From a virus (Duplodnaviria; Caudoviricetes): a DNA stretch of 56,900 nucleotides. Position numbers and translations under genes: made by a program. The stretch is taken from the IMG/VR virus record IMGVR_UViG_3300048597_000631, positions 1-56,900 of that record; one strand, written 5' to 3'. How positions within the stretch are numbered: the stretch's first letter is position 1; every line of letters starts with the position of its first letter. Positions 18,369-54,861 of this stretch are shown here, piece after piece. The notes below the pieces were generated by a model. It searched no databases and had not been told where the DNA came from. It saw nothing but the letters and a program-made list of their open reading frames with translations.

Positions 18369-21128
18369 TTAGGTGACGGCGACGAACGAACCTTTGCCAG
18401 CCACCGGAGACTCCATCGCGTTGTATTCCTCGATGTACCACTGCGTGGCCGCGATCAGCTTAGCGGTTGCCTGGTCATACTTCGGGAATGGACCTTGCAG
18501 CGACAAAGGCTTGTAGACGCGGAAAGCGACCAGCTCGCGGTTGACCACCATCATGATGTTGTCCGACAGTGCTGTGCTCGGCGCGGCGTAGATCGGCAGG
18601 CCCTTGAGCGTGCGGAAGAAGCCGTTGCTCTGCGCCTCGGCGTCGGGCCGGCTGCCGCTCTCCGTGAAGCCGCTCCAATTCGCGAGCAGGTCGGCGTTCG
18701 CCACCGACACAACGATGGACGTGGGCGAATAGTTGCGGTTGAGCACCTTCACCTTGGCCTTGCCCAGCTTCAGAATGGCATCGGCATAGTCCGGCGATCC
18801 CGCGCTGCCGTTCCATGTGCCGCCGCTGTTGTTCGCCACCGTGCGCAGCGTCGCGGCGGCCATGCTGAAGATGTCCTGGTCGACCTTGCGTGTCTGCTCG
18901 GTGATCAGGTTGCCCAGCGTGCGCTGCACCACGTCATAGTTCAGCTGCGAGCGCGAGAATTCGACCGCCTCGTTCGTGATGTCGATGCTCATGCGGTCGG
19001 CCTTCGCCGTGATGGTCACGTTCGACAGCGTGGTCTTGGCGCGCTCGATCGGCGCGTTCTCGCCTTTGCGAATCGCCTCATACACGTAGTCGATCAAGAG
19101 CGACTGACCGGCGGTGATCGCGCCGCCGGTGGGCACGAAGATGCGGCCGTTGCCATAGTCCACGAAGTAATCCGTGTTCTCGACATAGGTCGTCGAGCCG
19201 GCGCTATTGGTCAGCACCACCGTGCCCTGCTTCACGCGCTGGTTGGCGAGCGATCTCCATTGCGCCAGCGGGTTAGGCGCCGTGACGGCTTCATCCGTGA
19301 TCGTCACCGACATGCCCGATTCTTCGGTGTAGGTCTCGAAATACAGCAGGTCAGGCGAATTCTGCATCGGTGCCACATCGAAGATGCTCGTGGCCACCAA
19401 CTGCGGCCACACGGCCGCCACCACTGCGCGCGAGACGCTGTAGGGCAGCGACAGGTCGGTGCTGAGCTGCGCTTCGTTGAAACGCTGCGCCTCGGCGGCG
19501 AGCTTGTCCTTGAACTGCTCGTCGAAGCGCTTCAGGATTTGCGCCGCGACGATCTGGTTGCGGTTCTTCGGCTTGGCCTCGTTCCAGATCGGCGCGTATT
19601 CCCGCGCGCGCAGACCTTCGAGCAGCTCGTGCGACACGCGGCCATACTCCGGCACGCCGGCGTCGCGCTCGAGCACAGTGCCCAGCACCTGGACGCCGGC
19701 GGCGCCGCCTGCAGCAGACATGCCCATGCCGGCAAGTCGCGCGCTGGCCACCATCGCGTCGTAGCGCTTCTGCAAACGCTCGAAGGCGGCCTGCACGCCG
19801 GCGGCATCCGTCACCGCCTCGGCCAGCTCGTCGGCGAATTGCTTGTTCAGCGATTCACCATACGGCAGCTTCTCGCACGCCTTCTTCACAGCTTCGGCGA
19901 TGGCGGCCTTGCGCGCCTGCTCGTCGAGCGTGCGCTTGGCATCCATCGCCTCAGCGATGGTTTTGAACACGTCGGCGTTCGGCGCGAGGTTCAGCTTCTC
20001 GCGCAGCAAGCCCTCGATCTGTTTGGCCTGCGCCTCGGTCAGCTTGTCGAGCGCCTCGATCCCCAATGCGGCCTTCACCTGCGCCGCCAGTTCGGGATTT
20101 TGCTGGAGCATCTCCAGCAGCTTCTTCGGGTCCATGTTGTCCTCCTGATCAAATTCGTTTTTGTCGTTCTTGCTTTCGAGAACGGTGTGGTTGAGGAAGC
20201 CGGGCGTCATCACCAGGTCATAGCCGGTGAAGTGCAGCTCGGTCACCTCCTCGATCTCTCCATCGTTCTCGGTCAACGTTCGCGCGAAGCCATAGCCTCG
20301 CAGGCTGCCGCCGGGCATGACGCCGAACTCCATCAGGGTGAGTGCGTCCTTGCCTTTGCTGGTCGGGATGACGGTGCCAATGAAATCCACCGCGCCCGTG
20401 CCCTCGTCAAACGTGACTTCCGTCCAGTTGACGATGGTTTCCAGATAAAGGGGACGCTGCCCTTTGTCGCTCGGATGATCTGCCTCGCCGACCAATTGGT
20501 CGCCGTCCTTCGTGAGAAGAATGGCACGCCCCTGGCCCGCGCTCTCGTGCAAATGCTGTCTGATCTCGGTCACCGCACCGCGCACCACCTCGCGCGGGTA
20601 GCGTCGGCGGTTGCGGTTCACCGCGTCGGCCATCACCGCCTCGCGCACGCGGATGCGCCGGCCTTCGCCTTGCGCCGTCTTCACGGCCTCGCCCAGGTCG
20701 GCCTTGATCACATCGACCTGCTCGGTGAAGCGCGCTTTGCGCCCCTTGGCCCGTTCCGTCACAACGGTGGGCGCCGGCGTCGTTTGCGGAATCTTGGCCG
20801 GCGCAGCGGGCTGATAGGCCAGCTCGACGACTTCCCACTGATCCTGCGCATCGAACGCGAACTCAATGCCGGCGCCGGTCTCGGCAACCGAGTAGCCCAC
20901 GCGGTAATACTCGCCATCCTGAAGCGCGCTGCCGATGCTTTCGCTGGTGCGCGTGTATACAGAAACGATCAGGTGATCGGAGAAGATCTCGCGCACCACG
21001 TAGATCGGGCCGCGCTCAGCATCGGGGAACGCGCTGTAGAACGCGTTGCGCAGGCGCTGGAGATAGTCATCCAGCGACCCTTTCACTTCTGTGATCGCCT
21101 GGCCGCGGTTGAGTTTGCGTTTGCTCAT
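18369..21128 (-). CDS. Prohead protease-scaffold-major capsid polyprotein (T4 gp21/gp22/gp23-like)
   Basis: Protease motifs 'NRNRRRYP','GEADHP','TSKGK','SLRGYG'; helical middle region; gp23-like 'VWPQLVATSIFDVAPM'; no internal stop over 919 aa. Confidence 0.85.
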   Translation of the reverse strand: MSKRKLNRGQAITEVKGSLDDYLQRLRNAFYSAFPDAERGPIYVVREIFSDHLIVSVYTRTSESIGSALQDGEYYRVGYSVAETGAGIEFAFDAQDQWEVVELAYQPAAPAKIPQTTPAPTVVTERAKGRKARFTEQVDVIKADLGEAVKTAQGEGRRIRVREAVMADAVNRNRRRYPREVVRGAVTEIRQHLHESAGQGRAILLTKDGDQLVGEADHPSDKGQRPLYLETIVNWTEVTFDEGTGAVDFIGTVIPTSKGKDALTLMEFGVMPGGSLRGYGFARTLTENDGEIEEVTELHFTGYDLVMTPGFLNHTVLESKNDKNEFDQEDNMDPKKLLEMLQQNPELAAQVKAALGIEALDKLTEAQAKQIEGLLREKLNLAPNADVFKTIAEAMDAKRTLDEQARKAAIAEAVKKACEKLPYGESLNKQFADELAEAVTDAAGVQAAFERLQKRYDAMVASARLAGMGMSAAGGAAGVQVLGTVLERDAGVPEYGRVSHELLEGLRAREYAPIWNEAKPKNRNQIVAAQILKRFDEQFKDKLAAEAQRFNEAQLSTDLSLPYSVSRAVVAAVWPQLVATSIFDVAPMQNSPDLLYFETYTEESGMSVTITDEAVTAPNPLAQWRSLANQRVKQGTVVLTNSAGSTTYVENTDYFVDYGNGRIFVPTGGAITAGQSLLIDYVYEAIRKGENAPIERAKTTLSNVTITAKADRMSIDITNEAVEFSRSQLNYDVVQRTLGNLITEQTRKVDQDIFSMAAATLRTVANNSGGTWNGSAGSPDYADAILKLGKAKVKVLNRNYSPTSIVVSVANADLLANWSGFTESGSRPDAEAQSNGFFRTLKGLPIYAAPSTALSDNIMMVVNRELVAFRVYKPLSLQGPFPKYDQATAKLIAATQWYIEEYNAMESPVAGKGSFVAVT

Positions 21129-21150
21129 GTGTGATGCTGTCAATTGGCCG

Positions 21151-21241
21151 GAAAAGCAAAGCGGCGGCATTTCAAATGAAATGCCGCCGCTGGTCTGCTG
21201 GCCGGTATATGCCCCCTGCGGGGTTGATGTCTTGAATTCTA
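21151..21241 (-). promoter_or_regulatory. Repeated late leader, copy B
   Basis: TAGAAT at 21241-21236; same CCAGCAGACC-AGCGGCGGCATTTC...GAAATGCCGCCGCT-TTGCTTTTC element about 23 nt before the capsid ATG. Confidence 0.75.
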
Positions 21242-26653: not shown

Positions 26654-27325
26654 TTAACCCGCGCCAAGTAGCATCAGACGGGGTGCCGCAACTGCCGCTG
26701 CGGTGGGAATGTTGTTTGCGTCGTCCCACAGCGCAACGTCGTCGAACCACAGCGTCGCTGTCTGCGACCATGCCTCTTCACTGCCGCCAATTTGCAACTC
26801 ATCTGGCATTCCGGTTGTGCCAGCGGTCATATCCGTGAAGTTGATGATTTCCGCGTTGTCTTGCCAAACTTTTAAGTTTGGATTCGCGCCTGAAACATCG
26901 TAAAGAACATCAAACTTCACCCATTGCGCCGTAGGAATGCCGCCAGAAATTGAGATTGTTTCTGTGTCTCCATCCTTCCTTCGAAGGTAAGCGTTCCAGC
27001 TTCCGTAGTAATCAGCGATGCGGAACAGATTGAAGAGACCACTTCCGTTAAAGCGAAAGATTCTCAGGCCGCCTCCCGCGGTGACGGTTTGAATATTCAA
27101 CCAAAAACGGGCGTGAATGACGTTGCTTGCCGGCGGCGTGATTGTTCGAACAGGGTAAGCATTCCAGTTTTGCCCGCCGGTCAAACCTTCAGCGATCATG
27201 CCGTAGCTGCCGGCGCGTGCTGCTGCGCCGGCAACCGTGAGGCTTGCGCCGGTGCCGTTTACTGTTGTCCACGACCAGGCAGAAAAGTCGCCCGTCTCAA
27301 ACGTGTCAGCAAATATCTGTGCCAT
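26654..27325 (-). CDS. Lectin/LamG-like (concanavalin-fold) protein, lower GC
   Basis: 'FADTFETGDFSAW...LWFDDV' jelly-roll pattern. Confidence 0.55.
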   Translation of the reverse strand: MAQIFADTFETGDFSAWSWTTVNGTGASLTVAGAAARAGSYGMIAEGLTGGQNWNAYPVRTITPPASNVIHARFWLNIQTVTAGGGLRIFRFNGSGLFNLFRIADYYGSWNAYLRRKDGDTETISISGGIPTAQWVKFDVLYDVSGANPNLKVWQDNAEIINFTDMTAGTTGMPDELQIGGSEEAWSQTATLWFDDVALWDDANNIPTAAAVAAPRLMLLGAG

Positions 27326-29043
27326 CAGTTCGGATACTGAATCAAACGCAGGTCAGGCCGCGGATCATGCTCCAGCTCGGCACCGAGCGCCTGCGCCGGC
27401 ACGCCCGGCGGCATGTTGCGCGCCGGCTGGTCAGTGAAGAAATCATCTCGGTATTGGAGCGACTTGCCCGCTGGCACATTCAGCAGCTCATACGGGATGC
27501 AGTTCGGGCCGGCGCCGGTGCAGGCAGACGCAATCGCGCCCGTTCGATCCGTGAAGCCCTTGTATGTGATCAGGCCGTTGGAAACCGTCGCGCCTGGGAT
27601 GCTGTCGGGGATCTGCCCAAACACGCCGTGCAGCTGGCGTTTGCTGTTGTCATTGCCGCATGTGTTGGCATACACGCGCCGGTTTTCGGCCAGGTTGTAG
27701 TTGTCAGCAGACGACAGGCCGGTGCACATCGAGATGCCATTGCGCGGCATGGCGCCGGCGGTGAAATAGTCCCAGGTGTCGGATGCCTGGATGCTGACGC
27801 TGAGCACCTGATCGTCGCAGGGATACCACGTCACGAAGTTGCGATTGCCGGTGGCGTTGTAATGGAGCTTGCCGTTGGTGCGGCACACCTCGGCGCCAAG
27901 CGGTTGGCCATCGAGAATGATCGTGCCGAAGTCCTGATGCCGGCCGGCGCGGATGATGCCGCAGCGCGCCGGGTTGCTGACCTCGCACACCCGCGCCTCG
28001 CCATAGAACGAATGCCGCTGTGCGTTGGCGTCCAGTTCAGAGCCGACGAAGTGCGACCACACGCGAATGTCGGTCACGCACAACTCAGAACCGAATACTG
28101 AACGGCAGGGCAGGCCTTCGCGCGTGAAGATCTTGTAACCCTGGTGCTTGCCGTTCGGCCACACATCGTTTTCCATCATGATGTGGCCGCCCGGCATCGT
28201 CATCGATGTCTGCCAGGGGTAGCCCAGCTCGAAGCCGCCCATGGTTTGATAGATGGCCGTACCGAACACGTCGTCGAGCGCGTGAGGATCCTGGCCGTGC
28301 TCATGATCGTAGTAACAGTTTTGCGCTGGGTCATACAACCCGTGCCACTTGCGCGGATCATGCACGGCACAACGCGTCACGCTCGCCGGCAGCGGTGTGG
28401 CTGCAATTGCCGGCGTCGCGGTCGGCGCCGGCATGTCTGTGGCAGGAATGGGCGTTGCGCTGGGTTGCGCCGTCGGCGCTGGGTTGCCGACAAAAAACAG
28501 GATCGTGCTGGGCGGGGTGATCTGCCGGCCTTCGGCGTCATATGCAGCCGCCGACAACGAGTAGCTGCCATTCGGGTATTGCCTCGTGTCCCAGCCAGCG
28601 GGCGCGCCTTGAAAATCACCGAAGTAGAAATATGGCGCGGCGCGCTCCGTGCGTGTGTCGGTCGATGCACCGCTCAAGGCGAACACCACGCTGGCCGGCG
28701 TGACGTTGTTCACAACAGCCTCGATGGCCACCACGCCGCTGATGGTCGTGCCGGCGGTGATGCCGCGGAAGATGATCGAGCCGGCCGGCGTCGCACTCGG
28801 TGATGGCGTCGACTGTGCCGTCGCGCCGTAGTTGGCCTGGATGACGGTGCTGAGCATCGTCACGTCTCGGATGTCCATCACGCCATCGTTGTTGACATCG
28901 AAGTGTGGGTCATAGCCATTCGGCACCTGCGCCGGCGGCGATGCCGATGCGGGCATCACAGCCGATGCCGCAATCAGCAGCACGCTGGCGATCAATGCCG
29001 CGCGCAATGCGAATCGTGAGGCCAATTGTTTTTCTCCTTTCAT
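27325..29043 (-). CDS. Secreted multidomain protein (dockerin/EF-hand-like, Ig-like, PT linker, Cys/His-rich domain)
   Basis: Signal peptide; 'DVNNDGVMDIRD'; 'WDTRQYPNGSYSL'; 'CYYDHEHGQDP'; AAGGAG SD. Confidence 0.7.
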   Translation of the reverse strand: MKGEKQLASRFALRAALIASVLLIAASAVMPASASPPAQVPNGYDPHFDVNNDGVMDIRDVTMLSTVIQANYGATAQSTPSPSATPAGSIIFRGITAGTTISGVVAIEAVVNNVTPASVVFALSGASTDTRTERAAPYFYFGDFQGAPAGWDTRQYPNGSYSLSAAAYDAEGRQITPPSTILFFVGNPAPTAQPSATPIPATDMPAPTATPAIAATPLPASVTRCAVHDPRKWHGLYDPAQNCYYDHEHGQDPHALDDVFGTAIYQTMGGFELGYPWQTSMTMPGGHIMMENDVWPNGKHQGYKIFTREGLPCRSVFGSELCVTDIRVWSHFVGSELDANAQRHSFYGEARVCEVSNPARCGIIRAGRHQDFGTIILDGQPLGAEVCRTNGKLHYNATGNRNFVTWYPCDDQVLSVSIQASDTWDYFTAGAMPRNGISMCTGLSSADNYNLAENRRVYANTCGNDNSKRQLHGVFGQIPDSIPGATVSNGLITYKGFTDRTGAIASACTGAGPNCIPYELLNVPAGKSLQYRDDFFTDQPARNMPPGVPAQALGAELEHDPRPDLRLIQYPN

Positions 29044-29072
29044 GTCTCTCCTTTGAAGATCACTTGTGAAGA

Positions 29073-29654
29073 TCACTTGAATACGCCTGGCCGCCGGTGC
29101 TTGATCGCGTCGATCAAGTCGCGCATGCGGTCCGTGTTGCGCATGTGCTGCACAAGGTGCATCGCGCGCGTCGGCGCACTGTCGCCGGCCAGCGAATCCC
29201 ACTTCACGCCGAGCTCGTAGGCCAGCGTTTGCAGTTCCTCCATGTCGAACCGATCCATCAACACATCCAGCACCTGGCCATCCGCCTGCACCGTGCTGGG
29301 CTGGTGGGCCAGCGCCGGCGAGTTGCGGACGTAGAAATCCATCACGAAGTCAAGTCGCGCCTGCATTCGCTTTTCAGCGTCTCTCGCGCGCGCCTCGGCC
29401 TGGATTGCGCGCTCCTCCGCCTCCTTCACCCGCTGCGTGTTCTCGGCGCGGATGGCGTTGATCTGCCGGGTGTGCTGTGTCTGGAGCCACGCGCCATAGG
29501 CCAGAAACGCTATGGCCTGCGAGCCGAACAGGAGCATGGCCTCCGGCACGGTCAAGATGAACGTGGCCGGGTCGGCCAGCTGCGTATAGAGGGCTGCAGG
29601 CGCGGCAGCCGCGCGCAATGAGGACGTGGCCAGAATGAGGAGGGGCATGAACAT
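29073..29654 (-). CDS. Membrane-anchored coiled-coil protein with C-terminal EAD7-like domain
   Basis: Hydrophobic N-terminus, coiled coil, then 'FDMEELQTLAYELGVKWDSLAG...AMHLV...RP'. Confidence 0.65.
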   Translation of the reverse strand: MFMPLLILATSSLRAAAAPAALYTQLADPATFILTVPEAMLLFGSQAIAFLAYGAWLQTQHTRQINAIRAENTQRVKEAEERAIQAEARARDAEKRMQARLDFVMDFYVRNSPALAHQPSTVQADGQVLDVLMDRFDMEELQTLAYELGVKWDSLAGDSAPTRAMHLVQHMRNTDRMRDLIDAIKHRRPGVFK

Positions 29655-29656
29655 GA

Positions 29657-29851
29657 TCAGGGACGTGGGATATACATTGCGCCAGCGTCGTCCGAGTCCC
29701 ACCAGCAGCTGCGCGCCACGATGCCGCGATACACCTCGACCGTCTGCGCCTCGCACTGCGCGCGCAGATGATGGAGCGTCAGGCAAAACACCAGCACGAT
29801 CATCAGGGTGAGCAGCACGCACGCGACGACGTAGTTCCACAAGTTCCTCAT
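29657..29851 (-). CDS. Small membrane protein
   Basis: One TM helix; 64 aa. Confidence 0.5.
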   Translation of the reverse strand: MRNLWNYVVACVLLTLMIVLVFCLTLHHLRAQCEAQTVEVYRGIVARSCWWDSDDAGAMYIPRP

Positions 29852-29878: not shown

Positions 29879-30289
29879 TCAAAATAGCTTGCCGCCCGCC
29901 GGCGATTCATTCAGCGTGACGGGCAGCCCGATCTCGCGCAACCGCTGGTCGTCACGCTGCGCATCGCGCAGCCGGCGCGCCGCGAGAAACACGCCGTCGG
30001 TCGACGCCAGGCTCAGCACCGCAGCGATCACCACGCCCAGCACGTAGTCGCCAATCGACTGCACATTGCACGCTGGCGCGCCCGTCACCACGCCGACGCA
30101 GCCGCCGGCGATGAACAGCGCGGCCAGCGCCAGCACAATGACGCCGCGCACAGACCGCTGCGCATCGGCGCCAAGCGCCTCAAAGCGCGCGCGGGTCTGC
30201 GGGATCAGCAGCGCAATCACCGTGAGGGTCACGCTGGTGGCCAACGTCAGGCCGGCTGCCGTGGTCAGGTCGAAAGTCGTGTTGGTCAA
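29879..30289 (-). CDS. Holin-like three-TM membrane protein
   Basis: Three hydrophobic helices and a charged C-terminus; AAGGAG SD before TTG. Confidence 0.55.
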   Translation of the reverse strand: MTNTTFDLTTAAGLTLATSVTLTVIALLIPQTRARFEALGADAQRSVRGVIVLALAALFIAGGCVGVVTGAPACNVQSIGDYVLGVVIAAVLSLASTDGVFLAARRLRDAQRDDQRLREIGLPVTLNESPAGGKLF

Positions 30290-30527
30290 GGGTTGTCTCC
30301 TTTGGCGCCGGCGCATCCTGTGACATGTTCTGTGGAGCGTCCTGCTCCAGGATGCGCAGCGGCTCCAATATCGTTGCGCGGCAGATTGCCTTTCGCCGGC
30401 CCGCGGCGGTCATGCCGGCGCACATCGCTACAAGTGCGATGTCCATCTCGTGATATGCGACCTGTTGGTCGCCCTGCTCGCGCTGCTCGATGAGCAGGGT
30501 TGCGCGAATAACGTGATAAGTCTTCAT
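30180..30527 (-). CDS. Hypothetical protein, paralog of 30849-31049
   Basis: First 52 aa near-identical to the upstream ORF. Confidence 0.5.
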   Translation of the reverse strand: MKTYHVIRATLLIEQREQGDQQVAYHEMDIALVAMCAGMTAAGRRKAICRATILEPLRILEQDAPQNMSQDAPAPKETTLDQHDFRPDHGSRPDVGHQRDPHGDCAADPADPRAL

Positions 30528-30538
30528 GCTTGCGAGTG

Positions 30539-30623
30539 GAAAAGCAGAAGCGGCGGCAACCTATCGTTGGATAGATTGCCGCCGCATGAATGCTGAACCG
30601 GCTATTGAATTGAATGAATTATA
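30539..30623 (-). promoter_or_regulatory. Repeated late leader, diverged copy D
   Basis: TATAAT at 30623-30618; GCGGCGGCAA...TTGCCGCCGC stem with a different upper stem and a U-G pair on the minus strand; U-tract. Confidence 0.65.
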
Positions 30624-30627
30624 TGCC

Positions 30628-30852
30628 TTATTCCGCCTCACTCATAAAGCGTCTGCTATCGAGATCATCGATCAACATCGTGGGCGCATCAGCGCGACGG
30701 TGTCGACGCACACGACACCATTCATACTGCACAAATATGCCTGCGCGCTCAAATGCACGCAGACCGCGCAGCAAGTTACGCACGAGTTCGCGCTCCTCAG
30801 GCGTTTGAGGTGTCAGGTCGGCGTCGGGCCTTCGAGAAGATTCTCTGGTCAT
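30628..30852 (-). CDS. Hypothetical protein
   Basis: ATGA-coupled to 30849-31049. Confidence 0.45.
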   Translation of the reverse strand: MTRESSRRPDADLTPQTPEERELVRNLLRGLRAFERAGIFVQYEWCRVRRHRRADAPTMLIDDLDSRRFMSEAE

Positions 30853-31049
30853 GTGGTGCATGTCGGCGCCGGCGCAGCGGACCCGAACCGCATCGTTGCG
30901 CGGCAGATTGCCTTTCGCCGGCCCGCGGCGGCCATGCCGGCGCACATCGCTTCAAGAGCGATGTCCATCTCGTGATGTGCGACCTGTTGGTCGCCCTGCT
31001 CGCGCTGCTCGATGAGCAAGGTTGCGCGGATGACGTAGTAGGTCTTCAT
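30849..31049 (-). CDS. Hypothetical protein, first gene of the late operon
   Basis: 66 aa, directly behind leader copy C. Confidence 0.55.
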   Translation of the reverse strand: MKTYYVIRATLLIEQREQGDQQVAHHEMDIALEAMCAGMAAAGRRKAICRATMRFGSAAPAPTCTT

Positions 31050-31059
31050 GTCTACGGGC

Positions 31060-31137
31060 GGAAAAGCAAAGCGGCGGCATTTCCGTGGAAATGCCGCCGC
31101 TGGTCTGCTGGCCGGTGATTTAGTTGAGGTGATTATA
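31060..31137 (-). promoter_or_regulatory. Repeated late leader, copy C (probable main late promoter)
   Basis: TATAAT at 31137-31132; element identical to copy B except in the apical bases. Confidence 0.75.
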
Positions 31138-37501: not shown

Positions 37502-39454
37502 CTACGCTGGATCAGTAACCGTCACGGGTTCAACGTGGATGCTTGTGTCTGCGAATACATCCTTGTTCAACTTCTGAATCTTATCTTTTAGCCTGAATGT
37601 GCGAGCATGTGCACGGCGGATGATGACTTCATACGGCGCCGCGAAGATGGTTGTGTTGCCTTCTTGTATTACGTCGCGCGCATTGGACTTAACCTCACAA
37701 CCAAGCACGTAACAGACGATCTTTGTATATTCCTGTATCTTGCCACTCTCTCGAAGAATTGACGCATAGTTGGCCGCCTGCATCCGTTCTTCTCGTCCAA
37801 TTTTGAATCCGCCACGCTTAAGTTCAAGGATAAATATGTGATCAAACCCAACAACTTCAGGATCGACACTTTGATCAAGAGATCCAAAACGCTCGCTGGC
37901 ATAGAAACCCAAAGAGCCATCTGGAAGCGCTACAAAATCCGCCCGCTTGCGTGGGTCACTGAGCTTTGCCTTATCATCGCCCAGAAGATCGCGCACCACT
38001 GTCGCGAGTGTTCGGTTGGATTGGAAGTGCACTGACTCATATTCTGGGCCAAATATCCATAGCCCATTTTCAAACAGCGGGTGAATTTCATGCAGCTCAT
38101 CAGTCGTTGGATTGCCCACGCGTTCCTCAAGTGCTTCAATCAACTTCAGCCGCCGATCCAATTCATCTAAAACGAGATACGCCTCTCTCACAGACCACTT
38201 CTCAAGCAGTGTATGCAGCTGATCCAGTTCGCTTGAAGATAGATGCGCAAGCTGTCTAAGCAAATCGGTTCCAGACCGAGAACGCTCCATCTGTGTAAGG
38301 ACGGTCAGCATGTAATCCAAATCCTTATTCGATAGCGTAGGGCGTTCCCGCTGCGCGATGTCGATAAACTCATTGATGAAATAACGAGATCCGTTGGACA
38401 ACTCTCGCAACTCTCTGCCGTGGTTGCTCAAAGCCTTCTTTTTTTGTGCCAACAATTCCGCGCTGAATAGACGTTGGATTTCACGGTTAATGTAGTCACG
38501 AACTTCGATGCGCACCTTCTCCACTGCAGGGGAATCTTTGAATCCTGTCCAGTCCGTTTCTACGTGGTCTTCCAGCACATCGGCTTTCACAATGAAGCTA
38601 TAACTTCGCGCTTCAGCCAACCGGCGATCAATGGCCATCTGTTGTTCATCGCCATGCTTCCATGATGGCGTGTCGATCAGTTTTTTGTTCACCCACCACG
38701 CAATCCCATGCTGGGTGCTTGCCCGACCAACCACGGGGCTTTGCACACGAAAGACAATAACGTCGCCAACATCTTTCACATGCAATGTCTTGCTATGTCC
38801 TGTATTTAGATCGGTGAAATCAATGGGTTGATCGTTGACCATGATTTTGAATGCAGGATCCAATGCGAATTTTGTGCTCAGCAGCTTGCTTACATCGCTG
38901 ACCGACAATGCTCCGCGCACAAGCCTGCAAGACAAAATCGTACCATGGCCATCCCTTGGCGCAAGCTTCTCGCGGGTAACTTGAACTGGCAACTTTGCCA
39001 TTCCTTTTACCCACCGCACATGCCATCGCGAACATTCACCGTTCTTCCACGTTTCGACTGTGTATAAGTCAGCAAAGCAGAACATGCTGTGTCTGCCCTT
39101 GCCGTTGCGTCCGTGGGCCTTTCGGGGTGATGTTGCGTTGCCTGCTGGGAAAATCACTTCCCGCCCCTGCTTTGATACACGGCTGTAATTCCATGTCATC
39201 CAGCGATCTTGGAATTCAGCGATGGTCATTCCCGTGCCATCATCCTCAATCACAATTTCTTCATCTGGCGCTGCGTCCATCGACTTTTCAATTTTTGGCC
39301 ATGTGATCTTCACAACATTCGCGCCAGCATCCCATGCATTGGAGATCACTTCGACGAGTGCGATTTGTGAATCTTTGAGTAAACGCCCAGCATGGTCGAT
39401 GAGAAATTCAGACCCATACGTAAATGCTATTGATGATTTAGGTGTTTTGGGCAT
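37502..39454 (-). CDS. GHKL (HATPase_c_3/MORC-like) ATPase fused to a PD-(D/E)xK nuclease-like domain
   Basis: 'EVISNAWDA','DDGTGM','GRNGKG' GHKL motifs; C-terminal 'RADF...ILELKR...QAANY'; visibly lower GC. Confidence 0.8.
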   Translation of the reverse strand: MPKTPKSSIAFTYGSEFLIDHAGRLLKDSQIALVEVISNAWDAGANVVKITWPKIEKSMDAAPDEEIVIEDDGTGMTIAEFQDRWMTWNYSRVSKQGREVIFPAGNATSPRKAHGRNGKGRHSMFCFADLYTVETWKNGECSRWHVRWVKGMAKLPVQVTREKLAPRDGHGTILSCRLVRGALSVSDVSKLLSTKFALDPAFKIMVNDQPIDFTDLNTGHSKTLHVKDVGDVIVFRVQSPVVGRASTQHGIAWWVNKKLIDTPSWKHGDEQQMAIDRRLAEARSYSFIVKADVLEDHVETDWTGFKDSPAVEKVRIEVRDYINREIQRLFSAELLAQKKKALSNHGRELRELSNGSRYFINEFIDIAQRERPTLSNKDLDYMLTVLTQMERSRSGTDLLRQLAHLSSSELDQLHTLLEKWSVREAYLVLDELDRRLKLIEALEERVGNPTTDELHEIHPLFENGLWIFGPEYESVHFQSNRTLATVVRDLLGDDKAKLSDPRKRADFVALPDGSLGFYASERFGSLDQSVDPEVVGFDHIFILELKRGGFKIGREERMQAANYASILRESGKIQEYTKIVCYVLGCEVKSNARDVIQEGNTTIFAAPYEVIIRRAHARTFRLKDKIQKLNKDVFADTSIHVEPVTVTDPA

Positions 39455-39486
39455 GAGCAATTAAGGCTTTTGTTAGTAATAAGTGG

Positions 39487-42691: not shown

Positions 42692-42759
42692 GCCGCGTTG
42701 CCGGCGCGTGGTGAATGAATACCCCCCACTACGCGCCGGCTCTCCTGGAGGAGAAAGAC

Positions 42760-43947
42760 ATGGAATCCATTCAATTCGAGGCGATGCTATCGGTGCTCAA
42801 CCGAATCGCCATTGCGCTGGAAGCGTCAAAGCCGGCGGAGATCGAGACGATCACGCTGCCCATCGGCGCATACAAAGACTTCGACTGGTCGCAGATCAAT
42901 TGCCGCGTGTTTGCGGAGGATGAATTCGGGGTCGCGCAGGTGTTTTGCCTCAACGACGGACGCGTCTACACGCGGCGCACCAACGACAAATTCGGGTCTG
43001 AGATTTGGTATTCGCGCGGCGACGGCAAAACTGCCGACGGCACGCCGCGCTACAAACGCCTGATCGAGTTTCGAGAGATCAAGGATGCAGAGCCAATGGG
43101 CCGCAAAGCCGAGCAGGCCCTCAAGCACGCACCCGCTGTGCAGTCGCCGGCACTCAATCCACCTGTTGCCACACTGGGCGAGCGCATTTCTGCACAACAA
43201 CCGCCGGCAGCGCAACAGGTGATCGAGCAAAAACCGACTCTGCCGCCGCCGCCAGAGCGGCAAGAATTGCCGGCAGCGCTGCGCAAAGATTGGCTGCACT
43301 GGCACGACCAGGCGGCCAAGTTCGGCACGGTGCCGGCTGAGCTGGGCCTGTATGACACCGACACCATCGCGAGCGTCAACGAAAAGATCGGTCAGCTTAT
43401 CAAGCTGGTCGAGATCGGCGCGGAAGACGCAGCGCTGCAACTGTACGACAAACTGGTCATAGCGCTGGCCGACGCGAAAGAGGCCGGCGTCGACGTGCCA
43501 GCTGAGTTCTACGAAACTGCCGGCGTTGCGATCAGCGTGATCGAAATGCGCATCGGCACGATCGGCAACCTGATCGCGGCGAAGCAGGGCGCGCAGGTGA
43601 TGACGCAGCAGCAACCGCAAACGCAAATCGCCGGCGTGACTGGACAGCAGGTCATCAATGCGCTTCAGGACGCTGCCGCCAAAAGCGCCAGCCGCGTGAT
43701 GAGCAACAGCATGTCGTTCGACACGGTGAGCGCGCTGGAATACATCGCCGGCAACGAGGCCATGCGCCACGCATTCTGCGGGCGCGTGTTCGGGCAGCCG
43801 AAGTTCGGCGAGCTGAAAGACGCGCAGAAATACGCCCTCTTTAGCTGGCTGAAGCCGGCGCGCGTGAACGGCAAGGCCCAGCCCACCAATCAGAAGGCTG
43901 CAAGCGAATTCGCCGCGGTGATGGCGATTCACGAGGTGCCGGCGTGA
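42760..43947 (+). CDS. DdrB-like ssDNA-binding/annealing protein with extended C-terminus
   Basis: 'LPI...DFDWSQI','GRVYTRR','IWYSRG','YKRLIEFR' parallel Deinococcus DdrB motifs in order. Confidence 0.6.
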   Translation: MESIQFEAMLSVLNRIAIALEASKPAEIETITLPIGAYKDFDWSQINCRVFAEDEFGVAQVFCLNDGRVYTRRTNDKFGSEIWYSRGDGKTADGTPRYKRLIEFREIKDAEPMGRKAEQALKHAPAVQSPALNPPVATLGERISAQQPPAAQQVIEQKPTLPPPPERQELPAALRKDWLHWHDQAAKFGTVPAELGLYDTDTIASVNEKIGQLIKLVEIGAEDAALQLYDKLVIALADAKEAGVDVPAEFYETAGVAISVIEMRIGTIGNLIAAKQGAQVMTQQQPQTQIAGVTGQQVINALQDAAAKSASRVMSNSMSFDTVSALEYIAGNEAMRHAFCGRVFGQPKFGELKDAQKYALFSWLKPARVNGKAQPTNQKAASEFAAVMAIHEVPA

Positions 43948-45187: not shown

Positions 45188-46383
45188 CCATCGACACGCT
45201 GCTCACCCGCGTCGCCTGGGCAACCGACAAGAGCCGCCGGCGCGCCGCGGCACGCCGCTGGACGAAGGCCGAGATCGTGCGGCTGCATGACCTGGTCGGC
45301 AAGCGCAATGTCACGGCCATCGCCCGCGAGCTGGGCCGCTCGCGCAACGCCGTCGCGTCGAAGCTGATGCAGCTCGGCTACCGCATCAAGCGCGACGTGC
45401 AGCAGCCGGTCGGCCTCAACGCCCGCGAGCTGAGCGCGCTGATCGACGTGCCCTACGAGCAGGTTGTGCGCGACATCAACGCCGGCGTGATCAAAGGCGC
45501 GTTCCGTGAAAGCAAGAAGGACTTCATGGTGCCGTGGCGCAGTGTGCGGTCATATGAGAATCGCATGCAGCGCATCCGCACCCGCCGCGAAAAGGCCATT
45601 GCGCGCATCAAGGAAGAGACGATCACCAAGCAGGAGGCCATGCAGATCCTCGGCCTGAGCGAGACGCACCTCACACGCTACCTGCAGGGCAAGATTGTCA
45701 AAGCGTGGAAGATCCCGACGATCTTCACCACCGTCACCAAGTGGCGATGGGAATGGCTGGTGTCGAAGCGCGACGCCGAGCGTGTGCGCGACCTGCGCGC
45801 TGCCGGCAAGCTCCACGTGCGCATGCGCAAAAAGGCATATCGCAAGATCGCCGACGCGGCAAACCAGACGGTGCTGCAGATGCGCCGCGAGCAGCGCGCT
45901 GGACAGCGATCTGCCAAAACACTCAAGGCATTCGGGCCGCGCAATGCCGTGGTGCCAGGTCACTACACCATCGCCCAGGTTGCGCAGATCGTCGGCATCT
46001 CGACGCAGCAGGTTTACGAGCACAGCCGCAACGGCCGGCTGCAGTCCGCAAGCGTGCGCGTGGGCCGGCGCGCCTTCCGCACGATCACACCCGAGGCGCT
46101 CGAAGCCTACAAGGCCTGGCACGCGCGCCCGGTCAAGGCGACCGGCCCGATGGAGGCATGGCGCACAGGCCGCAACGCCGTGCACAAGGCCGGCCTGCTC
46201 ACCACGCGCGAGTCGGCTGATCGCTACGGCCTGGTCTTCGGCTCGCTGGTGTGCGCTGCGCGCGATGGACGAGTGAAGCATCGCAAGATCAAAAACCTCT
46301 TGGCTTTCAAGCCTGAGGATGTTGAAGCATACGCAGCCGGCATGCGCCGGCGCAAGGGAAAGAGTTTGAAGGAGGAAGCATGA
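45184..46383 (+). CDS. Multi-HTH (excisionase/MerR-like repeats) DNA-binding protein
   Basis: 'WTKAEI...IARELGRSRNAV' plus several HTH_17-like repeats. Confidence 0.72.
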   Translation: MTIDTLLTRVAWATDKSRRRAAARRWTKAEIVRLHDLVGKRNVTAIARELGRSRNAVASKLMQLGYRIKRDVQQPVGLNARELSALIDVPYEQVVRDINAGVIKGAFRESKKDFMVPWRSVRSYENRMQRIRTRREKAIARIKEETITKQEAMQILGLSETHLTRYLQGKIVKAWKIPTIFTTVTKWRWEWLVSKRDAERVRDLRAAGKLHVRMRKKAYRKIADAANQTVLQMRREQRAGQRSAKTLKAFGPRNAVVPGHYTIAQVAQIVGISTQQVYEHSRNGRLQSASVRVGRRAFRTITPEALEAYKAWHARPVKATGPMEAWRTGRNAVHKAGLLTTRESADRYGLVFGSLVCAARDGRVKHRKIKNLLAFKPEDVEAYAAGMRRRKGKSLKEEA

Positions 46384-47363
46384 ACGTCATTGGTCTGGAT
46401 CTGGGCATGGGCGCCACGAAATTGTGGAGCGCAAACGGCGGCAAGGTCATCCTGTCGCAGGTCGCCATGCCGACCCGCGAGGACATCGACCTGAAGGCGC
46501 TCGGCATGAGCGCGAAGCGCAAGCCTGTCGTCATCCTGAACGGCATGGGCCGGCTGCTGGTGGGCGAAGGCGCCCACGACGCCGGCACGCCGATCGAGCG
46601 GCTCGATTACGAGCGCCTCACCGGCTCACCTGAAATGAAGGCGCTGGTCTACGCCGCGCTGGCCACCCAGGACACGAGCGAGACGGACCCCATCGCCTTG
46701 ATGGTCGGCCTGCCGCTGGGCCTGGCCGCCGGCGACGAGTCCAAGCGCCGCATCGATGCCGTGAAGACCTGGCTGACCGGCGCGCACGTGTGGAAGGCCG
46801 ACCGGCGCGAGCACGTGGCCGTCGTCGACCGCGTCGGCTGTGTGTCGCAGGCGCACGCTGCATATCTCGACTGGCTGCTGAACGACGATGGCAAGCCCAT
46901 GGGCCGGCCCGTGAAGGGCAGAGAGATCGCGGTGATATCCGTCGGCTTCAACACCATCGAGATGGTCGTCCTGCGCGACAACCAGGCCATCAGTCGCTTC
47001 GTCGCCGGCGAGAAGCTGGGCGTACGGCGCTTTCTCGAGCTGGTGAACGAAGGCCGGCGCGGGTTGTTCTCCCTGGGTGAGCTCGACATCAAGCTGCGCG
47101 CCGGCGGGCTCGACGAGCCGGTGGCGCAATCGAAATGGAGCGCCCAGGTGCACGGCCACATCGAGCGCACCTGGTCGGATGCCGCTGGCCGTTTCGATCA
47201 GGTCATCGCCGTCGGCGGCGGTTCGCTGCTCCTGCATGACGCGCTCGTCGATCTGTTCGGCGGCCGGCTGATCGAGAGTGACGAGCCGGTGCTCAGCGTC
47301 GCGCGCGGCCTTTACAAGTTTGGGCTGATGCAAAAACTGAACGTGAAGGAGGCGGTGAAGTAA
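46380..47363 (+). CDS. ParM/StbA-like actin ATPase
   Basis: 'IGLDLGMGATK','VGLP','SVGFNTIE','VGGGS' actin-fold motifs. Confidence 0.85.
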   Translation: MNVIGLDLGMGATKLWSANGGKVILSQVAMPTREDIDLKALGMSAKRKPVVILNGMGRLLVGEGAHDAGTPIERLDYERLTGSPEMKALVYAALATQDTSETDPIALMVGLPLGLAAGDESKRRIDAVKTWLTGAHVWKADRREHVAVVDRVGCVSQAHAAYLDWLLNDDGKPMGRPVKGREIAVISVGFNTIEMVVLRDNQAISRFVAGEKLGVRRFLELVNEGRRGLFSLGELDIKLRAGGLDEPVAQSKWSAQVHGHIERTWSDAAGRFDQVIAVGGGSLLLHDALVDLFGGRLIESDEPVLSVARGLYKFGLMQKLNVKEAVK

Positions 47364-50795: not shown

Positions 50796-51136
50796 TGCCA
50801 CGCAACATGAGCTTCATGCTCACCACACAGCAGGTGATCGCCGGCACAAAGGACGTGACGCGCCGGCTTGGCTGGTGGACGCTCCGTCCAGGCGACCAGC
50901 TCAGCGCCGTTGAGAAGGGCATAGGCTTGAAGCGCGGGCAGAAGATCGTCAAGCTGCGCCGCATTGAGGTGGTCTCGATCCGACATGAGCGTCTGGACGC
51001 CATCACGCCAGAGGACGTGGCGCGTGAAGGATTCCCGGAGATGACGCCGCTGCAGTTCATCGAGATGTTCTGCGAGACACATCAGGGCTGCACGCCGGCC
51101 ACGATTGTGAATCGCATTGAATTCAAATATCTATGA
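50795..51136 (+). CDS. ASCH-domain protein
   Basis: 'GTKDVTRR...GD...ERLDAITPEDVAREGF' ASCH motif. Confidence 0.85.
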   Translation: MPRNMSFMLTTQQVIAGTKDVTRRLGWWTLRPGDQLSAVEKGIGLKRGQKIVKLRRIEVVSIRHERLDAITPEDVAREGFPEMTPLQFIEMFCETHQGCTPATIVNRIEFKYL

Positions 51137-52170
51137 GCACACCTACGCCCGACATCCGCACTCGCGTCGACGATGCTTTCAACGGCTTCATCGGCAACAC
51201 GCCGGCGGTGTATGCCATCAAGCGCAGTCTGCGCGTTGCGCTCACGCACACGCCGCCGCGTATGGATCGCGTGTTCTTGTTCGTCGGCGGGCCGTCGCTG
51301 GGCAAGACCACGATCGCCAAGCGCACCGCCGGGGCGCTCGGCCTGCCGTTCCTTCAGCTCGACGGCACCGCCATCAAGACCCGCGAACAACTGTTCGATG
51401 CGCTCGAAGACATGCTCGTCGACAGCGGCCTGCCGACGAAGCGGGTGGGGGAGCGCAGCGGCATGCCGATGATCGAGTATCCGCCCTGCGCCATCTTCAT
51501 CGACGAGATTCACACCCTCGGCGCCGGCGTGCAGAACGCGCTGCTGACTGCGCTTGAAGCCAACGACCGCAGCGTCGTGCTATCGCGCGCCGGCGTGCGC
51601 CGCGTGGCCGTGGTCGGCAACGTCCTGTTCATGTTCGCCACCACGAAGCAGGGCCTGCTCGACGACGCCTTCCGCAGCCGCTGCACCGAGATACTGCTGC
51701 AGCCGTATTCGCAAAGCGAGATCGAGGAGATGGTGCGCCTGAACTATCGCGATCTGCCGGCGGAGGCCGTGCCGCTGGTGGCCCGGGCGTCTCGCCTGGT
51801 GCCGCGCCGTGCCTTCATGCTCGCGCGCGATGTGGCCGAGGAGATCGCCGACACTGGAAAGCCGGTCGACACGTGCTTCGCGCATGTCATGTATGGCCTC
51901 GGCATTGTCAGCCGCAACGGACTGACGCATGACGACCTCGCATATCTCGACATCCTGGTCAACGAGCGCCGGCCGCTGGGTGAGCGCGTCATCATCGCCT
52001 CGCTCGAAGGCATCGAGAGTGAGCGTGTACGAGACGAGATCGAGCCTTATCTGAAACGCCTCGGCTACATCAAATTGGCCAAGGACGGCCGGGTGATCAC
52101 GCCGGACGGCCTCGACGCGCATAGTCGCATCAAGGCCCGCCTGGCCGAGCTTCCGCTGGGGGTGAATTGA
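51133..52170 (+). CDS. RuvB-like AAA+ ATPase
   Basis: 'FIGN', Walker A 'GGPSLGKTT', 'FIDEIH','ATT','FRSR', C-terminal 'IEPYL..LGYI....GRVIT' wHTH. Confidence 0.85.
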   Translation: MSTPTPDIRTRVDDAFNGFIGNTPAVYAIKRSLRVALTHTPPRMDRVFLFVGGPSLGKTTIAKRTAGALGLPFLQLDGTAIKTREQLFDALEDMLVDSGLPTKRVGERSGMPMIEYPPCAIFIDEIHTLGAGVQNALLTALEANDRSVVLSRAGVRRVAVVGNVLFMFATTKQGLLDDAFRSRCTEILLQPYSQSEIEEMVRLNYRDLPAEAVPLVARASRLVPRRAFMLARDVAEEIADTGKPVDTCFAHVMYGLGIVSRNGLTHDDLAYLDILVNERRPLGERVIIASLEGIESERVRDEIEPYLKRLGYIKLAKDGRVITPDGLDAHSRIKARLAELPLGVN

Positions 52171-53374: not shown

Positions 53375-53872
53375 ATGGAAGAAATCCAGTTTGATTACAA
53401 AGGCAAGACGCATGCCGTCGCAGTTGATGACGATGCACTAGAGACATTGAACAAGCATCAATGGTATGGGTTCGAATCGCCTGGTGGCTATCTTTATTGC
53501 GCACGATTCTCGGGCGACTTTTCCAATCCTGTTTGGTTTTTGCATTGGGACATTATGGGCAAGCCTGCGAAGGGGTATCACGTTGACCATAGAGACGGCA
53601 ACACACTAAATTGTCAGCGCGTCAACATGAGGATATGCACTCATCGCGAGAACCTGACAAACAGGAAGCGGCACAAAAACAACACGTCGGGATACAAGGG
53701 CGTAACACGCAACAAGGGCAAGTGGGGTGCACAGATAAAGTCCAACTATAAGTTGATTTGGTTGGGAACATTTGACGATCCAGTGTCTGCTGCATTGGCC
53801 TATGACAGAGCTGCACGTGAAATCTTTGGAGAGTTTGCGAATCTCAACTTTCCAGACGCGTCAAAGTCGTGA
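53375..53872 (+). CDS. HNH-AP2 homing endonuclease
   Basis: 'VDHRDGNTLNCQRVNMR' plus 'SGYKGV...LGTF...AALAYD.AA...FGEFA.LNF'; lower GC. Confidence 0.9.
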   Translation: MEEIQFDYKGKTHAVAVDDDALETLNKHQWYGFESPGGYLYCARFSGDFSNPVWFLHWDIMGKPAKGYHVDHRDGNTLNCQRVNMRICTHRENLTNRKRHKNNTSGYKGVTRNKGKWGAQIKSNYKLIWLGTFDDPVSAALAYDRAAREIFGEFANLNFPDASKS

Positions 53873-53892
53873 TCGTAAATTCAAGTTTGAGA

Positions 53893-54861
53893 ATGGAGAA
53901 ATCACCGATTGTTCAGAACCCCGCCGGCGCACCGGACACGACCACCGTGTCTGACTCAACGGCGCGTTATATCCGCGCCTCGCGTGCCTACAACACCCGC
54001 CGCGCTTACCAGTCCGATCTGCGCGACTTTCGCGAATGGTGTGAGGACAACAACCGTGCGCACTTCCCAGCGGTGCCAAAGACGGTTGCTGATTACCTTG
54101 CATACCTGGCTGATCAAGGCATGAAGGTCTCGACGATCGAGCGGCGCAACGTGGCCATCAGCGAGGCGCACAAGTCTGCCGGCGTGCCGAACCCGACCGC
54201 GACAGAGATCGTGCGCAAAGCCATGAGCGGCATTCGACGAGAACACGGCGCGCCCAGGCGCAAGGTGCGCGCCGTGACCGTGCGCGAGCTGCGCGCAATG
54301 TGTGAGGCCATGCCTGACACGCTCGCCGGCTATCGAGATCGCGCGATCCTTTGTGTGCAGTTCGCCGGCGCCATGCGCAGGTCTGAGCTGTCGAGCCTGA
54401 TCGTCGAGGATGTGGAGTGGGGTGTGGATGAGGTAGCGCTGACCATTCGACGCTCGAAGACCGACCAGGCCGGCGAGGGCATGCGCAAAGTGCTGCCGGC
54501 CTCAAGCGATCCAGCTATCTGCCCTGTGCGGCTGCTCAGGCGATGGCTGACCACCGCCGGTATTGACGACGGCGCGGTGTTTCGTGGGGTCGATCAGCAC
54601 GGCCACGTGGGCGCCGGCGCGCTGACGCCTGGCAACATCGCGCTGGTCTGGAAGCGCGCAGCCGAGCGGGTGGGGATTGCAGCAGATCGGGTGAGTGGCC
54701 ACAGCGCGCGGCGCGGCTTCATCACAGAAGCATTCAAGGCTGAGGTGGCCGAGGCGGACATTCAACAGGTCACTGGACACAAGTCCATCGCCGTCTTGCG
54801 CGACTACCGCGCCGATGCCGGCCAGGCACAGCGCAAGGCCGTGAACAAAGTGATGGGATAA
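53893..54861 (+). CDS. Cre-like tyrosine recombinase
   Basis: SAM-like 'NTRRAYQSD', 'RDRA...RRSEL','SKTDQ','GHSARRG','TGHKS...Y'. Confidence 0.9.
   Translation: MEKSPIVQNPAGAPDTTTVSDSTARYIRASRAYNTRRAYQSDLRDFREWCEDNNRAHFPAVPKTVADYLAYLADQGMKVSTIERRNVAISEAHKSAGVPNPTATEIVRKAMSGIRREHGAPRRKVRAVTVRELRAMCEAMPDTLAGYRDRAILCVQFAGAMRRSELSSLIVEDVEWGVDEVALTIRRSKTDQAGEGMRKVLPASSDPAICPVRLLRRWLTTAGIDDGAVFRGVDQHGHVGAGALTPGNIALVWKRAAERVGIAADRVSGHSARRGFITEAFKAEVAEADIQQVTGHKSIAVLRDYRADAGQAQRKAVNKVMG

Follow-up and report, generated by a model that had tools for sequence, protein, structure and literature searches.

A membrane-anchored EAD7 protein of an integrated temperate phage, encoded beside a holin-like gene and possibly acting as a decoy

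Death-fold adaptors (CARD, Pyrin, Death and the bacterial effector-associated domains, EADs) are the wiring of cell-suicide immunity, and animal viruses carry adaptor-only decoys. Phage holins have small membrane partners of their own, the holin accessory proteins and antiholins, e.g. the one-TM charged-tail partners of mycobacteriophage holins. To our knowledge, none of the holin partners described so far is equipped with an immune-system adaptor domain. The source papers on EADs are those of Kaur, Burroughs, Iyer and Aravind (eLife 2020, PMC7159879; eLife 2021, PMC8195603). As set out in the main text of the earlier paper, EADs are adaptors whose proposed task is to link effectors with core NTPase systems through homotypic contacts, and a second copy of the EAD is usually present in an adjacent gene or in the same genome (PMC7159879). 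The words 'prophage', 'holin' and 'phage-encoded' do not occur in that main text, the main text of PMC8195603 uses 'phage' only twice, in an unrelated way, and neither of the two papers reports a mechanism for EAD7-coupled systems.

Two described systems bring Death-fold machinery and phages or phage-derived elements together. As described in the preprint of Wein et al. (bioRxiv 2023, PMC10312443), pCARD of Acinetobacter phage 133 is a CARD-only inhibitor of a gasdermin defence that depends on CARD; its gene lies next to rIIAB, the membrane-linked phage locus which triggers that defence. LypABC, a host-encoded CARD-NLR-like system of three proteins with peptidase and NTPase, is reported to be needed for lysis by the gene transfer agent (GTA) of Caulobacter (Banks et al., Nat Microbiol 2026, PMC13236601). 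In the searchable literature, we found no paper joining an effector-associated domain with a holin, or a death-like domain with a lysis cassette.

In this study, we describe a gene in a viral DNA stretch of 56,900 nt (hereafter the window) and its protein, P0001. The original prediction, made from the sequence of the window, had proposed a membrane-anchored coiled-coil protein with an EAD7-like domain beside a holin-like gene, captured by the phage as a decoy for host immune effectors or for the recruitment of death effectors to lysis. We find that P0001 is the product of a phage gene for a small, predicted bitopic membrane protein, whose family adjoins one particular family of holin-like proteins with three hydrophobic segments, within a group of membrane and cell-wall-binding genes ahead of the packaging genes.

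The P0001 gene and its phage setting

With a length of 56.9 kb and a CheckV completeness of 54%, the window corresponds to a provirus record of IMG/VR. Its minus strand holds, from about 1.4 to 30.3 kb, tape-measure-like, head-morphogenesis, portal-like, protease-capsid fusion and SU10-type adaptor genes as well as the large and small terminase subunits. The plus strand carries DdrB-like, HTH, actin-like, RuvB-like and integrase genes from 30.5 kb onwards. The phage origin assumed in the original prediction is borne out by the structural and packaging matches, the integrase and the provirus record; judged by its gene content, the element is an integrated temperate phage. In the protein collection, P0001 sits on a 534-kb contig.

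Table 1. Features of the window discussed in the text
Feature	Position (nt)	Strand	Description
P0001 gene (gene under study)	29073..29654	-	193 aa; predicted anchor, long helix, linker, EAD7 at residues 129-189
64-aa ORF	29657..29851	-	one hydrophobic segment; stop 2 nt before P0001 start; uncertain gene
145-aa holin-like membrane protein	29879..30316	-	three hydrophobic segments; conserved partner of P0001
571-aa secreted dockerin-type protein	27325..29040	-	signal-like N-terminus, dockerin-like segment, uncatalogued C-terminal domain
Operon upstream region	30370..31101	-	two copies of a 177-nt repeat, 92% identical
Integrase	53869-54861	+	temperate-phage marker

P0001 is encoded by the third ORF of the late (structural) block on the minus strand, just upstream of the packaging genes, in the order 145-aa membrane protein, 64-aa ORF, P0001 and 571-aa dockerin-type protein (Table 1). 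The 64-aa ORF has a relative in none of the compared loci, and the corresponding gap in the related viral contig L002 holds a different ORF of 47 aa. In the region upstream of the operon, each repeat copy has a terminator-like hairpin before it on the minus strand; the region may serve late-operon control, and an Rfam search on it returned sub-threshold noise only.

On the other side of P0001, the 571-aa gene starts about 30 nt further on, with an AGGAG-type ribosome site 5-6 nt before its ATG at 29040. Its product gave a weak Dockerin_1 match under the Pfam cut-off (E 0.031), and its Atlas neighbours are dockerin clusters only, with scores of at most 0.81. Relatives are P0158-P0165, and a 336-aa protein encoded in the same cassette of contig L084 (4831-5841) aligns to it with 26% identity. 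PDB sequence and profile searches with the C-terminal domain were empty, and AlphaFold2 gave a poor model of this domain (mean pLDDT 51).

The gene under study had been placed correctly: the interval is an ATG-started ORF, stop codon included, with a translation of 193 aa. Full-length homologues are P0002 and P0003 (62-66% identity). Since the N-terminus MFMPL is common to P0001, P0003 and the L002 copy, and since the open frame 5' of the ATG shows no conservation in L002, the 193-aa form is taken as the product. A longer form with a TTG start at 29882 was ruled out, as its upstream part is not conserved. Between P0001 and the L002 copy, 43, 30 and 81 nucleotide differences fall on codon positions 1, 2 and 3, respectively, a pattern which supports the minus-strand frame; the differing codons comprise 51 synonymous and 52 non-synonymous ones. 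Comparison of the window with L002 thus indicates purifying selection on this frame, the EAD7 tip included. The EAD7 part is the more conserved one, with 57 of 68 residues as against 73 of 114 in the N-terminal part.

The EAD7 domain and the predicted topology

The EAD7-like nature of the C-terminal domain, which the original prediction had recognised by its pattern, was confirmed by Pfam. PF19960 (EAD7) matches residues 129-189 of P0001 with E 8.2e-15 and 54.8 bits, at a cut-off of 32, and spans profile positions 2-62 of 62; EAD1 stays below its own Pfam cut-off. A six-frame search of the whole record gave a single EAD7 match (E 8e-17, 57.2 bits), and the same search gave no EAD7 match in any of 14 control genomes. 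By profile, the C-terminal domain of P0001 is a genuine EAD7. Profile searches matched no enzymatic family in P0001, and according to Pfam and AlphaFold2 the C-terminal EAD7 is joined to an anchor and a long helix only, neither an effector nor a core domain being found.

The AlphaFold2 model, calculated from the 22-row family alignment A2, has a mean pLDDT of 86.4. It consists of a hydrophobic helix at residues 3-16, a continuous helix at 29-111 (pLDDT >95 for residues 41-100), a linker of low confidence and a compact bundle at 120-187. The EAD7 part is modelled with helices at 120-135, 138-147, 160-173 and 177-187, mostly with pLDDT >90. In VIA-align comparisons of model residues 117-193, the nine best rows were all CARD or Death domains (Z 7.4-8.3, rmsd 2.2-3.1, 69-74 residues), among them the CARDs of NOD1 (Z 8.3), NLRC4 (8.2) and caspase-1 (8.0) and the death domain of FADD (7.4), and a bacterial death-like domain reached Z 7.3, values to be read with the fact that a Z of about 8 is common for helical models and reachable by chance. 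Foldseek with the EAD7 model had no match up to E 0.001, and CARD rows appeared only at E 1.0-5.3. The modelled domain is consistent with a Death/CARD-like fold, the match being a middling one.

The transmembrane segment and coiled coil of the original prediction stand in part. An N-terminal anchor and the long helix 29-111 are found in the model; the hydrophobic stretch at 33-51, with a Kyte-Doolittle value of 1.62, is barely at the transmembrane threshold of 1.6, and what was called a coiled coil is a long-helix prediction. Residues 3-16 form a second hydrophobic stretch, and the N-terminal anchor as a whole comprises residues 3-16 and 29-56. In the family, where the anchor is more distinct, an N-terminal transmembrane segment is predicted in 21 of 22 members, and 19 of these 21 have at least two K/R in the flank on the C-side and none or one in the flank on the N-side. 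By the positive-inside rule, these flanking charges lead us to expect the long helix and the EAD7 in the cytoplasm. From the sequences we infer a topology with a short N-terminus outside, one anchor helix and a cytoplasmic helix which carries the EAD7.

An Rz-like spanin was considered and rejected: the sole match, to phrog_2466, is weak (E 0.023 over residues 48-102), and spanins of this kind are oriented N-in, C-out, opposite to the orientation predicted for P0001. With the E limit set at 1, Pfam detected no EACC1 in P0001.

Pairing with a holin-like gene family and distribution of relatives

Conservation of the neighbourhood was followed in ten viral records; these were reached from the terminase or from the membrane protein as seed and are not a random sample of EAD7 phages. 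A terminase alignment led to 80 related viral loci, on which the A2 family profile was run. It detected a P0001-type gene in three further contigs, L002/L003, L004 and L009, whose terminases are 87%, 91% and 54% identical to that of the window. In these contigs the gene always follows a small membrane protein belonging, with the 145-aa protein, to one collinear family. In a second scan, only the holin-like membrane protein (alignment A6) served as seed. Of the eight contigs obtained, two were already known, and in six of the eight an EAD7 protein is encoded directly downstream of the membrane gene.

Pfam reports exactly one above-cut-off EAD7 in seven of the nine other records and none in the remaining two. 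Thus eight of the ten records with the holin-like family carry a single EAD7 gene, which in each case adjoins the membrane gene, and a second EAD7 copy, be it in an adjacent gene or elsewhere on the record, is absent from the window and the nine other viral records. The description of the gene as lying beside a holin-like gene therefore holds well, with the qualification that in the window itself the 64-aa ORF intervenes. The phage EAD7 proteins of different lineages are 28-45% identical, mostly in the EAD7 part only; the records are thus no near-copies of each other, except for L085 and L086.

EAD7 is missing from L087, which is a fragment (17% complete), and from L088, whose genome is complete and carries terminal repeats. 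Next to the membrane gene, each of them encodes an EAD7-less protein of 105 or 124 aa with anchor and coiled coil, and its presence in the same slot suggests that this scaffold by itself plays a part in lysis. A further variant is seen in L004, where the anchor plus coiled-coil frame stops at 4115 and an 81-aa EAD7-only frame starts at 4112, with a GTGA overlap; these separate frames are either a real split or a frameshift.

The 145-aa membrane protein is 61% identical to its counterpart in L002 (9438-9848), which in turn matches a 96-aa protein of L009 (E 5e-5). The family alignment with nine members is collinear, with invariant P39, C73, G75, C83 and L103. The 145-aa protein has no Pfam, PHROG or NCBIfam match past threshold. 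A complex prediction for the holin-like protein (A8) and residues 1-115 of P0001 (A2) gave a score of 0.00 and a mark of 0.32, which weighs neither way.

By position and content, the P0001 block is probably a lysis cassette; family matches do not show it, and the terms holin-like and lysis cassette are drawn from size, hydrophobic segments, position and SH3_3 neighbours. In L009 the order is SH3_3 protein, unknown 205-aa protein, holin-like gene, second 3-TM protein, EAD7 gene, HNH endonuclease and terminase. In L002 an SH3_3 protein directly follows the EAD7 gene, and a weak PHROG endolysin match is found there (E 0.0011). The C-terminal domain of the L002 SH3_3 protein, about 300 aa long, is common to L009 and L089, and PDB sequence and profile searches with this SH3-linked domain were empty for all three. 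Seven cassette proteins gave nothing against NCBIfam, and the membrane proteins and candidate lysins have no Pfam, PHROG, NCBIfam or PDB match past threshold. The original prediction had stated that no endolysin is evident. It is true that the window proteins match no known lysin family; the argument drawn from this is weakened, though not abolished, by the SH3_3 candidates of related cassettes and by the slot after the EAD7 gene, which in the window is filled by the dockerin-type protein where L002 has its SH3_3 lysin candidate. The 571-aa protein is hence a lysin candidate by position only.

Beyond these phages, HMMER detected 453 proteins with E 0.001 or better among 1.84 billion representative sequences, for the most part large proteins with EAD7 domains. 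A Pfam architecture scan of the top 10 large hits identified six nSTAND1 NTPases (2-6 EAD7 copies; SIR2 in addition in one), two CHAT plus NTPase proteins with four EAD7 copies and two EAD7-only arrays. About 20 short proteins (147-213 aa) share the layout of anchor, helix and EAD7. The nearest Atlas clusters by features include short EAD7 clusters which are 100%, 63% and 80% viral among few recorded members, a lead at scores of 0.77-0.80. The Atlas structure neighbours of P0001 are EAD7 clusters most often assigned to Chloroflexota (scores <0.9), which fits the earlier remark that EAD7 is common in this phylum and serves as a lead; on the strength of these Atlas rows, the hosts of these uncultured phages are probably Chloroflexota. 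A profile search of a set of 5.8 billion proteins returned 10 proteins.

In a FastTree analysis of 329 EAD7 domains (about 60 columns, the set being chosen by likeness to P0001), the short-TM/phage domains showed 13 label changes as compared to a mean of 33.6 (30-35) in 200 shuffles, i.e. more clustering than by chance, and they form at least three separate groups among the cellular domains. The tree is too poorly resolved to separate one capture from several. No relative was found by tblastn of P0001 against 50,697 GenBank phage records, in genome contigs (searched with P0001 and with the terminase alignment) or in metagenome contigs (one scan). Viral scans seeded with P0007 and P0012 gave nothing, and a back-translated EAD7 motif had no matching stretch.

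Candidate roles and comparison with described systems

We tentatively favour, at somewhat less than an even chance, the reading of P0001 as a membrane-tethered Death-fold decoy against host EAD7-coupled immunity. P0001 would be made late, along with the holin-like protein and the terminase. Its EAD7 tip, held under the membrane, would act as an adaptor mimic which occupies or sequesters host EAD7 proteins, and an EAD7-coupled suicide response would be blocked from assembling before the timed lysis of the phage itself. As there is one EAD7 per phage record, the partner should be either P0001 itself or a host EAD7 protein, e.g. one of the STAND NTPases with tandem EAD7, in which its closest cellular relatives are found. 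We rank this reading first because of the single EAD7 per phage, because of the soluble EAD7-only frame in L004, which suits a decoy better than membrane clustering, and because of predicted co-expression with late proteins of the kind reportedly recognised by STAND sensors; Avs2, for instance, is described as recognising terminase (PMC11564622).

Several points speak against the decoy. The P0001 gene lies in a late, lysis-linked block, and decoys are usually expected early in infection. The EAD7-less protein with transmembrane segment and coiled coil in the same place in two of the ten records, one of them a complete genome, suggests a role in lysis for the scaffold as such. Conservation of the EAD7 between the window and L002 is not what a fast arms race would leave at short range. 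The modelled Death-fold match is middling, and the label of a lysis cassette is itself drawn from sequence features, with the holin and lysin families unmatched. The present data fit both options of the original prediction, the decoy and the recruitment of host death effectors for lysis, each of which now has a published precedent, in pCARD and LypABC, respectively.

P0001 may instead be a holin partner or antiholin, an alternative we regard as possible but doubtful, in which threshold-type self-assembly of the EAD7 would help to time or trigger the holes or the EAD7 would dock host death effectors for release. It is ranked second on account of the scaffold without EAD7 in the same slot and the strict pairing with the holin-like gene: the EAD7 gene adjoins that gene in eight of ten records and the EAD7-less scaffold does so in the other two. 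Tight spacing to the upstream ORF on the same strand points the same way, as do the nucleated polymerisation of Death-fold domains, with which the main text of PMC7159879 draws a parallel for EADs, the CARD-NLR-like system reported as essential for GTA lysis in Caulobacter (PMC13236601) and the lack of a recognisable endolysin among the profile matches of the window. On the other hand, the split in L004, if real, would separate the EAD7 from the membrane part, the holin family is unmatched, self-association of the EAD7 is hypothetical and, given the SH3_3 lysin candidates in related cassettes, a dependence of lysis on host effectors is not obvious. A bolder reading, which we consider unlikely, would be a phage lysis clock wired into the Death-fold suicide network of the host. 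The tip would dock activated host EAD7 arrays (STAND NTPases) and trigger the holin early, allowing escape before abortive infection completes, or would bring death effectors for release; this would be a counterpart of CARD-NLR-dependent GTA lysis.

It is improbable, in our estimate, that P0001 serves prophage-borne defence, as a membrane-perturbing effector recruited by host EAD7 sensors during infection by other phages. In the manner of the EAD-tagged effectors known from cellular conflict systems, it would shield the population by death or arrest of the lysogen. The element is integrated and temperate, EAD7 is listed among the EADs which mainly recruit effectors (PMC7159879), and EACC1, a domain with one transmembrane helix that is in some cases joined to EAD1 or EAD2, offers a cellular example of a transmembrane segment with an EAD (main text of PMC7159879). 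Yet the gene is inside the late operon and outside any moron or immunity region, the cognate EAD copy in an adjacent gene, the defining rule of EADs, is missing (one EAD7 per record in the window and seven of the nine others, none in two), the short EAD7 clusters closest to P0001 bear mostly viral labels, and one anchor helix with a coiled coil makes a weak candidate for a pore-former. Finally, the tip might be a helical cap kept by descent, with no function in an EAD network. The scaffold does occur without it, and phage EAD7 domains are highly divergent across lineages (28-45% identity). Despite this divergence, however, the EAD7 of the window and of seven of the nine other records scores above the Pfam cut-off, and the purifying selection on the tip between the window and L002 is a further argument against a mere cap, which we consider very unlikely.

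If the favoured decoy reading is correct, P0001 represents a second, different form of phage Death-fold adaptor after pCARD. If the tip binds host EAD7 proteins, it would provide a handle on EAD7-coupled systems, and cross-talk between phage lysis timing and abortive-infection signalling would become testable. The pairing raises the possibility that phage release is connected with suicide signalling in the host.

Like holin accessory proteins and antiholins, P0001 is a small, predicted membrane protein whose gene adjoins one of the holin type and whose predicted cytoplasmic tail is charged or helical; no sequence relationship of P0001 to them was found. With cellular EAD7 proteins (PF19960) it shares family membership and a small, all-helical, non-catalytic terminal domain, the closest matches to its predicted fold being CARD and Death domains. 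It differs from them in being phage-encoded, in the fusion to an anchor and predicted coiled coil instead of an enzyme or NTPase, and in having no second EAD7 copy in a neighbouring gene or on the record. EACC1, the single-TM component of a two-gene caspase system in the main text of PMC7159879, also joins a single membrane helix to an EAD in some cases, whereas the partner of P0001 is a holin-like gene and no caspase, its neighbours are membrane and dockerin-type proteins, and the setting is a phage.

Closer in context are the two systems linked to phages. Both pCARD, as described in PMC10312443, and P0001 are phage-encoded with a Death-fold adaptor as the sole recognisable domain, and the same interference with homotypic contacts is proposed for both; the 81-aa EAD7-only frame of L004 is, like pCARD, a phage adaptor-only form. 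In contrast to P0001, pCARD is soluble, has neither anchor nor coiled coil and belongs to another Death-fold family, and its inhibition of defence is experimental, whereas we infer the role of P0001 from sequence and model. LypABC, according to PMC13236601, and the P0001 locus both tie lysis by a phage or phage-derived element to immune-type machinery of the Death fold; LypABC is host-encoded, whereas the P0001 module is phage-borne and consists of a bare adaptor beside holin-like genes. Already known, then, are the EAD7 domain as a catalogued family and one published phage Death-fold decoy. What is new, by the sequence comparisons presented here, is a predicted membrane-anchored coiled-coil EAD7 protein genetically locked to a family of holin-like genes.

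Holin-like family and its upstream region

Among the Pfam, PHROG and NCBIfam models, none matched the holin-like protein of the window or its eight homologues. Alignment of these nine members revealed two invariant cysteines, C73 and C83 (numbering of the window protein), which are located at the end of the second hydrophobic segment and just beyond it. In the holin-like forms of the window and of the related viral locus L002, the N-terminus is extended by an arginine-rich stretch and the C-terminus by a charged tail; the 96-aa forms have neither.

Immediately upstream of the holin-like gene of the window lies a direct repeat of two copies (92% identical), each preceded on the minus strand by a strong terminator-like hairpin. 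Each copy also contains a version of a duplicated small ORF (MKTY..VIRATLLIEQ..). Rfam families matching this repeat and hairpin region were not found. The region may be a control region of the late operon.

Neighbouring genes of the cassette

The secreted dockerin-type protein ends in an uncatalogued domain, near the start of which invariant W, H and C residues and an H-x-H-G motif are found. Eight database relatives of the window protein were retrieved, and the protein is found again in the same putative lysis cassette of a second phage (L084, 4831-5841). Its AlphaFold2 model was poor (pLDDT 51). At the junction with the EAD7 gene (window 29041-29075, minus strand) there are two copies of the 12-nt unit AAGTGATCTTCA (coding strand) with a single base between them. 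The first overlaps the stop codon of the EAD7 gene; the second ends just short of the following gene's ribosome-binding site.

In L004, another related viral locus, the frame encoding the anchor and coiled coil is separate from the EAD7 frame (region 4100-4120), the two overlapping as GTGA. Either the gene is naturally split, giving a membrane protein plus an EAD7-only protein of 81 aa, or the contig contains a frameshift. By eye, the ORF lists suggest a second conserved small protein, encoded in or near the cassette gene block (L084 4460-4867, L004 7537-7890), with an N-terminal hydrophobic segment, a coiled coil and the ending ..SLEWNVN..W..C(K/R).

Structural and replication genes

Features of the window
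Feature	Position	Strand	Details
933-aa ORF	18369-21170	-	Peptidase_S77 (prohead serine protease), Ig-like tail-protein and weak major-head-protein matches
Secreted dockerin-type protein	27325-29040	-	C-terminal domain uncatalogued
Holin-like gene	29879-30316	-	
Direct repeat copies	30370-30546; 30892-31068		177 nt
Terminator-like hairpins	30585-30550; 31101-31070	-	stems 16 and 14 bp
HATPase_c_3 protein	37502-39460	-	652 aa; early/replication side
DdrB-like protein	42715-43947	+	early/replication side
Actin-like (ALP/ParM-type) protein	46380-47363	+	early/replication side
RuvB-like AAA ATPase	51133-52170	+	early/replication side

The 933-aa ORF looks like a protease-capsid fusion.
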